From positions 1,104,357-1,168,356 of the forward strand of contig NZ_OZ241836.1 in NCBI RefSeq assembly GCF_965202595.1: a DNA stretch of 64,000 nucleotides. Direction: 5' to 3'. Numbering within the stretch: position 1 is the first letter of the stretch; each line of letters starts with the position of its first letter. The notes under the pieces are model-generated. The model saw only the letters and a program-made list of their open reading frames with translations, had not been told where the DNA came from and searched no databases. Positions 28,043 to 32,997 of this stretch are shown here, piece by piece. Source of the stretch: Candidatus Poriferisocius sp. (GTDB lineage Bacteria; Actinomycetota; Acidimicrobiia; Acidimicrobiales; Bin134). The translations under genes and the position numbers were made by a program.

Positions 28043-28077
28043 CCCCTGGGGTGTTCGGGCTCTCTCAGCCCCAGGGG
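28043..28077. terminator. GC-rich hairpin between convergent thiolase and SelW-like genes (possible bidirectional terminator)
   Basis: CCCCTGGGG (28043-28051) pairs with CCCCAGGGG (28069-28077) across a 17-nt loop. There is no canonical U-tract after the stem. Confidence 0.3.
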
Positions 28078-28091
28078 TTACGAGCTTGGGG

Positions 28092-28364
28092 CTATGTGCC
28101 GTAGCGGTTCACCCCGGTGGCATACCGGCTGGTGAATAGCTCCAGAATCTCACCGGGTTCGGCGTGCCGGCAGCAGCCGTCCTTGGAGAAAAGCATCTCC
28201 CCATCGACTTCCACATCGAAGATTCCCGATGTCCCCGTCACCAGGGCCAGGTTCTCGATGATGTGCTGGTAGTTACCCAGCAAGTCCTTGGCAGCGCTCA
28301 CGGCGTGCTCCGAATAGTCTCAAGGGACGCAATAGGTGATGGTGATGCGATGCTTTTGAGCCAC
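28092..28364 (-). CDS. SelW/Rdx-family selenoprotein with CxxU motif (TGA at 28320-28322)
   Basis: GTG-AQKHRITITYCVP-TGA-DYSEHAV is joined in frame to track ORF 28092..28301 (...LVTGTSGIFDVEVDGEMLFSK...EPGEILELF). There is an in-frame TAG 12 nt upstream of the GTG at 28364. Confidence 0.75.
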
Positions 28365-28448
28365 GGGAGCAGGCTACCAGCGGGTTCACACGAATGTTTC
28401 CCACCTATGGTTATTGCCCGTCCGCAAATACCTCTCACCTCCCCCGGT

Positions 28449-29213
28449 TCAGTGCAATTCGGGCCACAAATCCAGGGCGGTGCCGCCCAAGAATTGGGCT
28501 TGCTCAGGGGTTGACATGTTCGAGCAGGCCGCCCGAGCCTGGTCCACCAGTTCACGGTAGGGACGGTCGTGGGTCTGGGAGTAGTCGGACCCCCACATGA
28601 TCCGGTCGAGGCCGAACTGCTCGGCCAGCCGTTGCAGCACTGATGCCGGATCGCCCGAATCCAGCACATGAGGGGTGACTTTCAGGTACAGGTTGGGCAG
28701 GTGGGCGTAGTCGCCCATGGTCTCGGGGGCGAAACCGCAGTGATCCAGAGCGAGGGCCACATCAGGATTGGCCGCCAGGGCCTTGCCCAGCGCGGGCAGA
28801 TGATCGGGAACCGTGGCCGCGCTCACCCGCAGGCCCAGCCGCCGAGCCGCGTCCCACGTGGCCTCGTGGTGCAGCAGCCCCTCCCCACCGATGGCGAAGA
28901 GACGTACCCCACCCACTCCAGCGGCGGCCAGAGGGTCGAGTTCGGCGGGATCGTCCACGATGGCCACCGCGCCGAGAATGCCGGGGTGGGCCGACCGGGC
29001 GGCAACGATGTAGGAGTTGTCGGTGCCGTAGGCCCCCTGAGCCTGGACCAGAATCGCCCGATCCACCCCCGCGCCGCCCATCTCGACCCGCAACTCTTCC
29101 ACCGTGATCGGTGCTTCATGCACCCACTCCACCCCCGGATAGTCGCCCACCCGGAGCGGGTACCGCTGATGATCGCCAGAAATCACATGAGTATGGGTGT
29201 CCACTACCAGCAC
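28449..29213 (-). CDS. amidohydrolase family (TIM-barrel metal-dependent hydrolase) protein
   Basis: (V/M)LVVDTHTHVISGD..., ...LDHCGF..., ...MWGSDYSQTH. Confidence 0.75.
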   Translation of the reverse strand: MLVVDTHTHVISGDHQRYPLRVGDYPGVEWVHEAPITVEELRVEMGGAGVDRAILVQAQGAYGTDNSYIVAARSAHPGILGAVAIVDDPAELDPLAAAGVGGVRLFAIGGEGLLHHEATWDAARRLGLRVSAATVPDHLPALGKALAANPDVALALDHCGFAPETMGDYAHLPNLYLKVTPHVLDSGDPASVLQRLAEQFGLDRIMWGSDYSQTHDRPYRELVDQARAACSNMSTPEQAQFLGGTALDLWPELH

Positions 29214-29302
29214 CCGATCAGTCTGCCCGACATGAGGTCATCGGGTTGGGTAATCCCGAGGTCTCCGGGTGTCCACTACCAGCACCCGATCAGTCTGCCC
29301 GA
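29195..29302 (-). repeat. 72-bp duplication (about 1.5 copies) of the amidohydrolase start region
   Basis: GGGTGTCCACTACCAGCACCCGATCAGTCTGCCCGA occurs at 29195-29230 and 29267-29302. Confidence 0.9.
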
Positions 29303-29354
29303 TGCAAACTCGGTAAGAGTTGTACCTAGCTGGTGGGTTCAGCGGGAAGGGTGG

Positions 29355-30290
29355 TTAGGAGATGCGTGCCAGTTGGCGATGGAGCCAGTCCTCCTGGTCG
29401 GCGGTGTAGCGCCGGGCCACCTCGGTGCCGGCGAACAGGGCAACTCCATGGGGGGCACCGGGGTAGACGTGCAACTCGGTGGGGACGCCGGCACCGTAGA
29501 GGCGCATGGCGTAGGTGATGTCCTCGTCGCGGAAGCCGTCCGCACCCCCGACGCAGACGTAGGCCTCGGGCAGCCCTGACAGGTCGGTGGCTCGAGCCGC
29601 GGCCGCGGTGGGCGGGATGTCGTCGGTGCCGTACATAGCGCCGAGATAGCTCTGCCACCCGAATGTGTTGGATGCCTTACTCCACACCAGAAGATCCTCG
29701 AGCCGGCTGGACGGGGTCTGCTGACGATCATCGAGCATCGGGCAGTCCAGCAACTGGAACTGCACCGGCACTTCACCCCGGTCCCGAGCGAGCAGCGCCA
29801 GGGCCGCGCTCAAACCTCCCCCGGCGCTGACACCGGTGATGCCGATCTTGTCCCGGTCTATGCCGATCCCGGTTGCGTTGTCATACGTCCATCTCAAACC
29901 GGTGTAGCAGTCCTCCAGCGGCCCCGGGTACGGGGTCTCGGGAGCCAGGCGGTACTCCACCGAAACCCCGATGATGCCGTACCGCGGACACCACCGGTCG
30001 AACTTGGCATCATCCATGTCGAAGCTGCCCAGAACGTAGCCCCCGCCGTGAATCGAGTACACGCATGGTGCCGGGCCCTCCAGCCCCTTGGGCCGGTGGA
30101 CTCTCACCATCACGCCGGTGGCTTCATCGATCACATGTTCCGTGCGCTCCACCGCATCGCTGAGCTCGGCGAGCGCAAGCCTCGGTCTTTCCCGCAACTC
30201 CGGCAGGATCGCGGCGTTGATTTCCCCAAACGGCACCAAGTCCTTGAGGGGTTCGATTTCCTCGTGCAACGGGATCGTGGCCACGTACAC
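29355..30290 (-). CDS. alpha/beta hydrolase (HSL-type esterase/lipase)
   Basis: Contains the HGGGY oxyanion motif and the GVSAGG nucleophile elbow. Confidence 0.85.
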   Translation of the reverse strand: MYVATIPLHEEIEPLKDLVPFGEINAAILPELRERPRLALAELSDAVERTEHVIDEATGVMVRVHRPKGLEGPAPCVYSIHGGGYVLGSFDMDDAKFDRWCPRYGIIGVSVEYRLAPETPYPGPLEDCYTGLRWTYDNATGIGIDRDKIGITGVSAGGGLSAALALLARDRGEVPVQFQLLDCPMLDDRQQTPSSRLEDLLVWSKASNTFGWQSYLGAMYGTDDIPPTAAAARATDLSGLPEAYVCVGGADGFRDEDITYAMRLYGAGVPTELHVYPGAPHGVALFAGTEVARRYTADQEDWLHRQLARIS

Positions 30291-30316
30291 TCCTTTTTGA
30301 ATTGGGTTGAAGCCTC

Positions 30317-30407
30317 ATGGATATTTGGCCAATGGCTACTTGGCCAATGGATATTTGATCAATGGCTACTTGATCAATAAATACTTGCTCAGCGGCTGGT
30401 TGAGCAA
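30317..30407. promoter_or_regulatory. array of six 8-bp palindromes (TTGNNCAA) at exact 15-bp spacing in a divergent promoter region
   Basis: TTGGCCAA at 30325 and 30340, TTGATCAA at 30355 and 30370, TTGCTCAG at 30385, TTGAGCAA at 30400. This is an AT-rich stretch between the esterase (minus strand) and CoA-transferase (plus strand) genes. Confidence 0.55.
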
Positions 30408-30576
30408 GATAGCCCACCGGCGATCCGGCACTGGTGTGGCCAGGAAGAGCCCGGTTTTGGGTAGTCTGCCGGGCAATGTTGAGGCGTTGCTGGGCAATGG
30501 GCCGGGGCGAGGAGGCGGCATTCGTGGATGGCAGCACCCGATACCGGACAATGTACCGGGGCGACCTCTCGAGCCC

Positions 30577-32997
30577 GTGATCCTCCAGCACTGGCGCGTC
30601 ATTGAGGTGGGCGGGGGCATCGCGGCCTGCTACGCCGGCAAGCTGCTGGCCGACGCCGGAGCCGACGTGATCAAGATAGAGCCCCCCGGTGGCGAACCCC
30701 TGCGCCGGTGGTCGGCCTCGGGTGCCGACCTGGGGAATCGGGACGGTCCCCTGTTCCAGTTCCTGAACACTTCCAAGCGGTCGGTGATCGCCGACTGGGG
30801 TGACCCCGGCATCATCGGGTTGCTGAGTACCGCCGACATCGTCATCGACTCCACCGACCGGGGTTTGCCCCCATCCATCACCGGTACCGCTCGCCGTGCC
30901 AATCCCGCTCTGGTGGTGGTGTCGCTCTCGCCGTGGGGGCGCACCGGTCCCTGCGCCGGACGGCCGGCCACCGAGTTCACCCTCCAGGCCGAGTGCGGCG
31001 GTCTGGGTAAGCGGGGCAACCCGGAGCGGCCCCCGGTACAGTCCGGGGGCGCCATCGGCGAGTGGACCACCGGCATCTACGCCGGAGTGGGTGCGCTGGC
31101 GGCGGCTCGAGCTGCCGGTCGCAGTGGCCGGGGCGACCACGTGGATGTGTCCATGTTCGAGACGATGGTCATGACCATGTGCACCTACGCCTGGATAAAC
31201 AGTGCGTTCACCGGTGACCCCGACCCCGAACGGCCCGGCCGCAACGTGGAGCTACCCTCCATCGAGCCCACCGCTGATGGTCACGTGGGCTTCTGTACGG
31301 TAGCTCGCCAGCAGTTTCTGGATTTCCTGGTCATGATCGAACGCCCCGACTGGCAGGAGGATGAGGAGATGTGCAGCCATGCGGGGCGCTGGAAGCGGCG
31401 GGAGGAGTTCCGGGCCGCCATGCACGCCTGGACCACCCGGCGAACCACCGCCGAGGTCATCGCCGAGGCATCGGCCCGGCGCATCCCGGTAGCCCCCATA
31501 GGCAACGGGGCCACGGTGCCCACCCTGGAGGCGTTTTTGGGCCGGGAGGCGTTCACCGCCAATCCCTCGGGAGGTTTCACCCAGCCGACCGTGCCCTACG
31601 AACTGCACGGCACCACTCCCCGACCCTTCGCCCCGGTCCCCGCTCCTGGTGAGCACACCGGGCAGATCGAGGCTCGCGCTCCCCAACCCGGCAGGGATGA
31701 GCTCGCGTCCCTACCCCTGCACGGTGTCCGGCCGGGTTCGGATGGGATTGAAGTTCCCGGCAGGGATGAGCTCGCGTCCCTACCCCTGCACGGTGTCCGG
31801 GTAATCGACTTCACGGCCTGGTGGGCCGGGCCCATCGCCAGTCACTCCCTGGCCCTCCTCGGTGCCGATGTGGTCAAGATCGAATCCGTGTCGCGACCCG
31901 ACGGGATGCGGTTCGCCTCGGCCCGCCCCCCCACCGAGGACCAGTGGTGGGAGTGGGGCATGGTCTTCCACGGGGCCAACACCAACAAGCGGGGCATCAC
32001 CCTGGATATGCGCTCCCCCCGGGGGGTGGCAATGGCCGAGCGGCTGATCTCCGATGCCGATGTTGTGATCGAGAACTTCACCCCCCGGGTGATGGAGGAG
32101 TTCGGTCTCGACTGGGACCGCCTGTCGTCCATCAACCCGAGGGTGATAATGGCCCGGATGCCGGCCTTCGGGCTCAGCGGGGCCTGGCGCAACAACACCG
32201 GGTTCGCCCAGACCATGGAGCAGCTCACCGGCATGGCCAACATCACCGGCTATCCCGATGAGGATCCCCAGATACCCCGGGGGCCGTGCGACCCGCTGGC
32301 CGGGATGCACGCGGTTTTTGCCGTTCTGGCCGCGCTGGAGGAGCGGGATCGCACCGGTCGGGGCCGGCTGGTGGAGGTAACCATGGTATCCGCCGCCCTC
32401 AATGCCGCGGCCGAGCAGTTGGTGGAGTACTCGGCCCTCGGTCGTCAGCTTCCCCGGCAGGGCAACCGGGGGCCGCGGGCCGCCCCCCAGGGGGTCTACC
32501 CCGCGGCCGGTACCGAGCGCTGGGTGGCGGTGGCGGTGGCCGATGATGCTCAGTGGGAGGCTCTCTGCCACCTGTGCGAGCGCTCGGACTGGGCGAGGTA
32601 CAACACGGTGAGCAAGCGGCGGGCCGCGGCCGATGAGATCGATACCGGGTTGGCCGAGTGGCTGGCCGGAAAGGTTGACACCGACGCGGTAAGAGCACTG
32701 ACTGCTGTCGGGGTTCCAGCCGGCGTTGTGATGCTCCCGGCCGAGATCGGTGATCACCCCCAGCTCCGGGCTCGCTCGTTCATCGAACCCGTCCACCACC
32801 CGGTTTGCGGCGAGGTACCCGCCGCCGGCCTGCCGTTCAGGTTCGATTCGGTACCCGGTGGCTGGATCCGAAGCCCCGCTCCCACCCTGGGCCAGCACAA
32901 TTGTGAGATTCTGACCAAGGAGCTGGGCATATCCCCCTCCGAACTGGCCGATCTGGAGAGCCAGGGCGTTATCGGCACCCGTCCCGTAGGGGTCTAG
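30577..32997 (+). CDS. tandem fusion of two family III (CaiB/BaiF) CoA-transferase domains
   Basis: Domain 1 is ...WRVIEVGGGIAACYAGKLLADAGADVIKIEPPGG. Domain 2 is LHGVRVIDFTAWWAGPIASHSLALLGADVVKIES. The start is uncertain: GTG 30577 is proposed, while the track ORF starts at 30307. Confidence 0.7.
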   Translation: MILQHWRVIEVGGGIAACYAGKLLADAGADVIKIEPPGGEPLRRWSASGADLGNRDGPLFQFLNTSKRSVIADWGDPGIIGLLSTADIVIDSTDRGLPPSITGTARRANPALVVVSLSPWGRTGPCAGRPATEFTLQAECGGLGKRGNPERPPVQSGGAIGEWTTGIYAGVGALAAARAAGRSGRGDHVDVSMFETMVMTMCTYAWINSAFTGDPDPERPGRNVELPSIEPTADGHVGFCTVARQQFLDFLVMIERPDWQEDEEMCSHAGRWKRREEFRAAMHAWTTRRTTAEVIAEASARRIPVAPIGNGATVPTLEAFLGREAFTANPSGGFTQPTVPYELHGTTPRPFAPVPAPGEHTGQIEARAPQPGRDELASLPLHGVRPGSDGIEVPGRDELASLPLHGVRVIDFTAWWAGPIASHSLALLGADVVKIESVSRPDGMRFASARPPTEDQWWEWGMVFHGANTNKRGITLDMRSPRGVAMAERLISDADVVIENFTPRVMEEFGLDWDRLSSINPRVIMARMPAFGLSGAWRNNTGFAQTMEQLTGMANITGYPDEDPQIPRGPCDPLAGMHAVFAVLAALEERDRTGRGRLVEVTMVSAALNAAAEQLVEYSALGRQLPRQGNRGPRAAPQGVYPAAGTERWVAVAVADDAQWEALCHLCERSDWARYNTVSKRRAAADEIDTGLAEWLAGKVDTDAVRALTAVGVPAGVVMLPAEIGDHPQLRARSFIEPVHHPVCGEVPAAGLPFRFDSVPGGWIRSPAPTLGQHNCEILTKELGISPSELADLESQGVIGTRPVGV
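31687..31800 (+). repeat. 69-bp in-frame duplication (45 bp identical) at the inter-domain junction of the CaiB-CaiB fusion
   Basis: CCCGGCAGGGATGAGCTCGCGTCCCTACCCCTGCACGGTGTCCGG occurs at 31687-31731 and 31756-31800. It encodes PGRDELASLPLHGVR twice. Confidence 0.95.

Follow-up and report, generated by a model that had tools for sequence, protein, structure and literature searches.

A conserved in-frame TGA in a SelW-like gene of Candidatus Poriferisocius is very probably a selenocysteine codon overlooked by public annotation

Gene finders place an open reading frame of 69 codons on the minus strand of the 64,000-nucleotide stretch of DNA analysed here (the window), and the GTG at which this frame is made to start lies 18 nt past a TGA. 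The question that this locus raises is whether the TGA is a stop codon or is instead decoded as selenocysteine (Sec) within a longer gene. On the minus strand, the frame can be followed from a TAG (28376-28374) through a GTG (28364-28362), the residues AQKHRITITY and the codons TGC, GTC, CCT and TGA, after which it continues as DYSEHAV-SAAKDLLGNYQH... (residue by residue D-Y-S-E-H-A-V-S-A-A-K-D-L-L-G-N-Y-Q-H...) up to a TAG at 28094-28092. The 90-codon product begins with MAQKHRITITY-C12-V-P-[TGA]. A sequence-only reading of this DNA had proposed the frame, the CxxU site, the upstream TAG and the length of 90 codons, and each of these proved accurate to the base on the minus strand in both sequence and translation. 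That reading had also stated that ORF calling missed the gene, and indeed the listed ORF is of 69 aa only, as is the public call for the locus. The features of the coding region are given below.

28092 to 28364, minus strand: coding sequence of the Rdx/SelW-like selenoprotein, 90 sense codons plus a TAG stop, with the motif Cys12-Val-Pro-Sec15 (Sec proposed)
28362 to 28364, minus strand: GTG start codon; no other start codon occurs from the in-frame TAG to the motif
28329 to 28331, minus strand: TGC codon of Cys12, residue 1 of CxxU; TGC or TGT in 61 of the sequences compared and TGA in 20
28320 to 28322, minus strand: in-frame TGA, proposed Sec15; TGA in 81/81 sequences, aligned with the second Cys of CxxC
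28092 to 28301, minus strand: 69-aa ORF of the gene finders, whose GTG start (28301-28299) is the G-U-G of a SECIS-like apical loop

Elsewhere in the window TGA is a normal stop, with both flanking genes terminating in it. We conclude that the locus is a real 90-codon gene for a small redox protein of the SelW/Rdx type and that its in-frame TGA very probably encodes selenocysteine. The probability that this is a genuine predicted gene for a Sec-containing Rdx protein is put at about 0.88.

Family membership was assessed with the TGA written as Cys in profile and structure-sequence searches. The 90-aa product scores 53.1 bits against the Pfam Rdx family (PF10262; cut-off 22.6), with its residues 6-76 covering profile positions 1-71 of 74, whereas the 69-aa ORF scores 27.7 bits and covers positions 20-71 of 74 only. 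The sequence-only reading had regarded the 69-aa ORF as the C-terminal part of an Rdx fold, which these profile positions bear out, and it had proposed a profile search of the longer product with U replaced by Cys. This search recovers the Rdx and SelT/SelW/SelH families above their curated cut-offs, and it is only the extended product that covers the CxxC/CxxU part of the profile. The NCBIfam model for SelT/SelW/SelH (TIGR02174) is passed at 40.8 bits against a cut-off of 34.2. The NCBIfam equivalog NF041051 (SelTWH_Campy) gives 63 bits against a cut-off of 88, so the product is related to the Campylobacter-type equivalog group without being a member of it. Among solved structures, the product matches 3DEX, 2FA8, 2OJL, 2OKA, 2OBK, 2P0G and human MIEN1, with the Y-C-T-Q-C of 3DEX, 2FA8 and 2OJL aligning on Y-C-V-P-U of the window protein.

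The fold was modelled on a proxy, the full-length Cys-containing relative P0021 (49% identity with the window product). The AF2 model of this relative has a pLDDT of 89.6 and the order beta-alpha-beta-beta-beta-alpha, with the first Cys closing beta-1 (residues 15-22) and the second Cys located in a 5-residue loop that precedes alpha-1 (28-45). The top 21 Foldseek matches of the model are all bacterial SelW-related chains (target TM 0.80-0.91, rmsd 1.3-1.8 A); the best of these are 2FA8, 2OBK, 3DEX and 2P0G (target TM 0.85-0.91), and the 21 chains are followed by MIEN1, mouse SelW and thioredoxins. The window product is predicted to adopt the thioredoxin-like beta-alpha-beta-beta-beta-alpha fold of the Rdx family, and both the CxxC alignment with 3DEX, 2FA8 and 2OJL and the P0021 model position C12-V-P-U15 at the junction of beta-1 and alpha-1.

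These comparisons bear on the possibility that the TGA is a true stop, in which case the functional product would be the 69 residues that start at GTG 28301 and the 14 codons upstream would form a leader peptide or a regulatory uORF. Every public gene call treats the locus in this manner, and in the window a GGAG is present 6 nt upstream of GTG 28301. However, a product of 69 aa would be without strand beta-1 and without the CxxC/CxxU motif, both of which are kept in the solved Rdx relatives, and the upstream 14 codons align residue by residue with N-termini in both the solved Rdx proteins and the full-length Cys forms. Moreover, the GGAG is not conserved, with close relatives having CGAG instead, and the GTG is accounted for by the loop of the hairpin described below. 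Termination at the TGA is accordingly regarded as very unlikely.

Conservation of the TGA was followed in loci retrieved from species-representative genomes using the C-terminal 69 residues only, so that the retrieval did not select for TGA. The 80 loci obtained in this way make 81 sequences together with the window. Their source genomes belong to the Acidimicrobiia, among them several MAGs with the label Ca. Poriferisocius, and to Chloroflexota of the Promineifilaceae, Ardenticatenaceae and Caldilineales. All of the loci have a common architecture in which a start codon is followed by about 10 residues and then by Y-C/U-V-P-TGA as an in-frame upstream extension. The fourth codon of the motif is TGA in all 81 sequences, and the first is TGC in 50, TGT in 11 and TGA in 20. 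Among 80 distinct sequences, the entropy of the TGA is zero at all three of its positions, with neighbouring third positions having 1.0-1.9 bits. This conservation, which extends across two phyla, is far more than expected by chance.

Codons on both sides of the TGA are conserved in the manner of coding sequence. Upstream of the TGA, first and second positions hardly vary in the codons that specify I, I, Y, C, V and P, and codon differences that involve a single nucleotide have a synonymous to non-synonymous ratio of 7582:1804 in the 9 upstream codons and of 26083:12914 downstream. By this comparison of sequences, the N-terminal extension is evidently translated and under purifying selection that is at least as strong as that on the remainder of the protein. 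The sequence-only reading had named a non-conserved extension as grounds for abandoning its proposal; the extension is in fact kept in 80/80 relatives and evolves as coding sequence. The same data address the idea that the gene is a pseudogene that arose by nonsense mutation of a Cys codon. A single change of TGC to TGA would give the observed sequence, but that same change would have to be fixed in 81 genomes from two phyla in which purifying selection acts on both flanks and a structured element persists downstream. The pseudogene reading is effectively refuted by these comparative data.

Comparison with Cys-containing orthologs, which the sequence-only reading had also recommended, supplied P0021 and P0026 with cysteine codons at the U position. 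There are two true Cys forms, with motif codons TGT..TGC and TGC..TGT; at the U position P0021 has TGC and P0026 has TGT, and the Cys-form loci L082 and L083 have TGC and TGT. A protein search yielded 95 relatives, most of which are 69 aa in length and begin at the same place, and many have been given the JGI names 'predicted Rdx family selenoprotein' or 'selenoprotein W-related'. One database protein reads 'CVPW' at the motif. The DNA that encodes it has TGA, so this entry was translated with a Trp-reading code.

If the TGA encodes Sec, a recoding signal is expected downstream, and the sequence-only reading had suggested that a SECIS be predicted in 28260-28320. A SECIS-like hairpin is located inside this range.

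28285 to 28314, minus strand: SECIS-like stem-loop recognised by folding and comparison, apical loop CGUGA at +21 to +25 (28302-28298)

Numbering the U of UGA as +1, the upper stem pairs +15 to +20 with +26 to +32 (G15-C32, C16-G31, A17-U30, C18-G28, G19-C27 and C20-G26, with C29 bulged), and an optional lower stem of 3 bp can form between +9 to +11 and +36 to +38. The hairpin has an energy of -6.0 kcal/mol when only the upper stem is counted, and adding the lower stem brings it to -6.9 kcal/mol; upper-stem pairs have probabilities of about 0.8. The published bSECIS model describes a loop of 3-9 nt with a G in its first two positions that is usually followed by G or U, a UGA-loop spacing of 16-37 nt, an upper stem of 4-16 bp and an MFE <= -7.5 kcal/mol (PMC13188914). 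The window hairpin has this geometry, given its 5-nt CGUGA loop with G-U at loop positions 2-3, its spacing of 17 nt and its 6-bp stem with a bulged C, and at -6.9 kcal/mol it is short of the -7.5 cut-off by 0.6. The bSECIS test is permissive, being passed by 59/81 of the real sequences and also by 57/243 shuffled ones. As a single sequence, a 61-nt fold of the region past the TGA does no better than shuffles (z = -0.24; other folds +1.3 to +1.5), which explains why the sequence-only reading could not fold a convincing stem by hand. On the window alone, with -6.9 kcal/mol and shuffle-level stability, the hairpin is indeed weak and it becomes convincing only across relatives.

Among relatives, the same hairpin is present at the same distance from the TGA in 41 distinct sequences of what we term the type-A set, which is composed of all Acidimicrobiia, other Actinomycetota loci and two Chloroflexota. 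Most type-A stems are perfect helices of 5-6 bp, examples being CCGCGC/GCGCGG, CCGUGC/GCACGG and CCGCAC/GUGCGG. In most Chloroflexota (29 sequences) the corresponding hairpin has a CGUGU loop and is displaced by 4 nt in the downstream direction, and its stems include CUGCC/GGCAG, CUGUC/GACAG, CCGUC/GACGG, CCGCC/GGCGG and CCAUC/GGUGG. Exchanges in the stem among relatives are of the kinds C-G to U-A and G-C to A-U. The CCAUC/GGUGG stem involves two non-synonymous changes that compensate each other, and in L065 and L077 a change of Val to Ile is paired with one of Ala to Val. Independently of these assignments, RNAalifold finds these hairpins to be the only consensus structure in both alignments. 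In the set of 29 Chloroflexota sequences five pairs are 100% paired with 8 double changes. For type-A sequences, pairing reaches 98-100% at the three inner pairs, which account for 4 of the 8 double changes of the six-pair stem. Both the number of double-change cells and the covariation score exceed those of all 500 column shuffles in each set, a result that related sequences can also give without any structure. The covariation is modest, with 3 and 2 pairs having double changes in the two sets, and part of it could stem from protein constraint and shared ancestry as these are coding sequences of related genes. Additionally, among the 23 species that make up the clade of the window gene, there is hardly any synonymous variation in the seven codons of the hairpin (+4 to +10). 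Six of these codons are identical throughout and the remaining one is GCT in 21 species and GCG in 2, with several flanking codons varying more. The Cys forms have Leu codons in place of the Val codon from which the loop takes its G-U. The G-U-G of the hairpin loop also explains the GTG at which the 69-aa ORF has been annotated to start.

A second hairpin, at +41 to +59 (28282-28264, minus strand; GCUGGG/CCAGC with loop GUAACUA, -9.7 kcal/mol), was considered as the SECIS and rejected. It is 43 nt from the UGA, and a similar one occurs only in the CxxU relatives L003 and L007, being absent from the clade with a UxxU motif discussed below and from the rest of the family. A search with Rfam gave nothing at the gathering threshold in the window, and around the gene it gave only a chance miRNA match (E = 3.8). 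This null result is expected, since bacterial SECIS elements are poorly represented in Rfam, which offers no usable model.

The start of the gene is marked by a second conserved element. In the window and the 22 closest relatives (L001-L024 minus L017 and L022), a start codon is located at -11 from the Cys codon, this being ATG in 21/22 of the relatives and GTG in L003, and in all 81 sequences a start codon occurs 9-18 codons 5' of the first codon of the motif. In the window and each of these 22 relatives the hexamer TAGCCT, which is TAGTCT in L001, ends 6 nt 5' of the start, and upstream of it the sequences of this group diverge. The in-frame TAG pointed out by the sequence-only reading is part of this hexamer. 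Two noncoding elements flank the gene.

28371 to 28376, minus strand: TAGCCT hexamer, a candidate -10 element of a leaderless transcript, recognised by its conservation
28043 to 28077, no strand assigned: 9-bp GC-rich inverted repeat (CCCCTGGGG / CCCCAGGGG), -26.2 kcal/mol, z = -2.13

Scans for a consensus sigma-70 promoter and for a consensus terminator found no match. The conserved TAGCCT together with the lack of a Shine-Dalgarno sequence points to a transcript that is probably leaderless, with translation from GTG 28364. The inverted repeat falls within the 67 nt that separate the Rdx gene from the convergent thiolase gene, where it is probably a terminator without a U-tract that would serve both.

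These elements suggest how the gene would be expressed. Translation would begin at GTG 28364, probably on a leaderless mRNA, and when the ribosome arrives at the UGA (28322-28320) it would have ahead of it, 17 nt downstream, the hairpin with G-U in its apical loop. From its conservation and from the general bacterial mechanism, this hairpin is presumed to hold SelB-GTP-Sec-tRNA(Sec), such that Sec is inserted and termination avoided. In the finished protein Cys12 would close strand beta-1 and Sec15 would stand where helix alpha-1 begins, and the protein may cycle between a reduced selenol/thiol form and a selenenylsulfide as a small thiol-dependent oxidoreductase.

The trans-acting machinery that this requires was sought in the window and in the loci of relatives. 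ARAGORN found no tRNA genes in the 64-kb window, hence no tRNA-Sec, and in the 80 loci of 6 kb each it found no tRNA-Sec either, only ordinary tRNA-Ala, tRNA-Asp and tRNA-Gly. An E. coli SelD probe, itself checked against PDB 3U0O (767 bits), had no real tblastn match in the window or the 80 loci, and overall none of SelA, SelB and SelD was found in the 64-kb window or the 80 loci. Sec machinery has been reported in both lineages: for Acidimicrobiia in the Actinomarinales (bioRxiv 10.64898/2026.04.03.716425) and likewise for Chloroflexota (PMC13582414). On the basis of these lineage-level reports we infer that selA, selB, selC and selD are present in the source organism. A scan of the window for other in-frame TGA codons accompanied by a redox motif returned only low-complexity frames typical of high-GC DNA.

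The identity of the tRNA bears on a further explanation, in which recoding of the UGA also depends on this hairpin and on SelB but Cys is supplied, by a tRNA of the tRNA(ReC)/SelC* type, so that the product is a CxxC Rdx protein. Transfer RNAs of the tRNA(ReC) type do decode UGA as Cys with a SECIS and have been reported as enriched in genomes with UxxU motifs (PMC13582414), and the sister clade of the window gene is UxxU. Nevertheless, no such tRNA is present in the window or beside the gene in the 80 loci. Furthermore, TGC would suffice to encode Cys without a recoding apparatus, yet 81/81 sequences keep TGA, and true TGC/TGT forms do exist in other lineages. Insertion of Cys at this codon is consequently considered very unlikely, and insertion of Sec remains the preferred reading.

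The genomic neighbourhood of the gene was also compared. Neighbours in the window encode an Amidohydro_2 protein, a thiolase, an Amidohydro_3 protein, an esterase and a double CoA-transferase. Synteny, with Amidohydro_2 upstream and the thiolase and Amidohydro_3 downstream, does not extend beyond the 23 closest genomes, and the 80 loci compared have no partner gene that is common to the whole family. In most Chloroflexota loci (L037, L042, L048, L049, L051, L053, L054, L060, L064, L068-L072, L074, L075, L078 and L080) the gene adjoins a divergent pair of tRNA-Ala genes with GGC and CGC anticodons that lies a few hundred nt upstream, and in Actinomycetota loci there is no tRNA near the gene. 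Two repeats were observed on the upstream side of the window locus. A 31-nt direct repeat occupies 29200-29230 and 29273-29303; the Amidohydro_2 gene (28449-29213, minus strand) has its start and its first codons in the first copy, and the second copy is intergenic, 73 nt upstream of the first, so the 5' end of the Amidohydro_2 gene has been duplicated. A 15-nt tandem repeat at 30317-30387 (consensus ATGGATACTTGGCCA, 4.7 copies, 80% matches) is located between the divergent esterase gene (29355-30290, minus strand) and the double CoA-transferase gene. The ORF at 30307-32997 encodes a product of 896 residues that combines two CoA-transferase family III domains (573.9 bits, matched in two stretches), and its TTG start at 30307 runs through the tandem repeat and is probably too far upstream.

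Bacterial SelW-like proteins are the best-known bacterial selenoprotein family, and in this respect the find, while correct, is an ordinary one. For these proteins, 427 Sec forms and 56 Cys forms were counted in the GOS study (PMC2398784), and current reviews describe the family as PF10262 with a CxxU motif and one Sec (PMC9312934, PMC13188914). The window gene agrees with this description in its domain, in a CxxU with Sec second, in its single Sec, in a SECIS within the coding region just past the UGA, in having Cys homologues and in a length of ~90 aa. It differs from other bacterial SelW-like genes in that its clade has motifs of its own, L-L-x-N-Y-Q-H and R-H-A-E-P-G-E, and in that its hosts are Acidimicrobiia (several labelled Ca. 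Poriferisocius, a sponge-derived name) and Chloroflexota. It also differs in that the public records of its clade are only 69-aa truncations, and its sub-clade has an extra Cys-Cys pair at residues 64-65. This Cys64-Cys65 pair (28170-28175, minus strand) occurs just before R-H-A-E-P-G-E, as K-D-G-C-C-R-H-A-E in the window protein and its closest relatives; the site is C-M or D-C in other sub-clades and is without Cys in most of the family. The pair could be a second redox site or a resolving site.

The solved Cys-type Rdx proteins (Atu0228 2FA8, SAV_2001 3DEX, 2OBK, 2OKA, 2OJL and 2P0G) resemble the window gene product at E = 1e-7 to 2e-2, and the P0021 model superposes on them at an rmsd of 1.3-1.8 A, but they have Cys rather than Sec, C-T-Q-C rather than C-V-P-U and an identity of ~17-33%. 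Eukaryotic SELENOW (mouse SelW, 2NPB) shares the fold class and the CxxU position (Foldseek query TM of 0.58 with the P0021 model). However, it utilizes a 3'-UTR SECIS with SBP2/eEFSec and its similarity is distant, such that the window gene is a family relative and not an orthologue.

Among the closest relatives of the window gene is a clade with TGA at both motif positions. Twenty species of Acidimicrobiia read TAT-TGA-GTT-CCT-TGA (UxxU) with one unchanged hairpin downstream, the site being L001:2971-2982 and the same position in L002, L004-L006, L008-L016, L018-L021, L023 and L024. These species include Ca. Poriferisocius and Sva0996-group MAGs, and they derive from independent Illumina- and long-read-based assemblies. 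In a neighbor-joining gene tree calculated with the first motif codon masked, the UxxU sequences form one clade that has the CxxU genes of the window and L003 as its sister, with L007 placed just outside. The two UGA codons of this clade are 9 nt apart, with spacings of 17 and 26 nt to the hairpin. Amphioxus and Ostreococcus have a SELENOW of the UxxU type (PMC7539508), and in bacteria UxxU proteins include Prx-like and FmdB-like proteins and Group 4 [NiFeSe] hydrogenases (PMC13188914, PMC13582414); their likeness is to the double TGA of the sister clade, the window gene itself being CxxU. The UxxU form is absent from the bacterial SelW-like entries of the reviews consulted, which give only CxxU with one Sec. 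We lean towards the view that in the sister clade of the window gene and L003 the first motif codon became TGA, which would make its product a diselenide SelW-like protein if both codons are read as Sec. In that event, the window gene would be a natural one-Sec comparator for studying how one SECIS serves two UGA codons. The UxxU sister clade is more unusual than the window gene, but it lies outside the window.

The window gene genuinely adds a new member to the bacterial SelW-like CxxU family, which is already known, and this member has been mis-called in public annotation. It is worth recording as a case of systematic mis-annotation and not as a new kind of protein, and it leaves the understanding of how selenoproteins work unchanged. 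Public calls in this lineage give a 69-residue truncation in which the active site is lost and the start codon is placed inside the recoding signal. Consequently, catalogues based on such calls undercount selenoproteins in Acidimicrobiia and Chloroflexota. The find adds a well-supported SelW-like clade with its own conserved motifs in >80 species, and it indicates that predicted selenium-dependent redox proteins are maintained in these symbiont-rich lineages.
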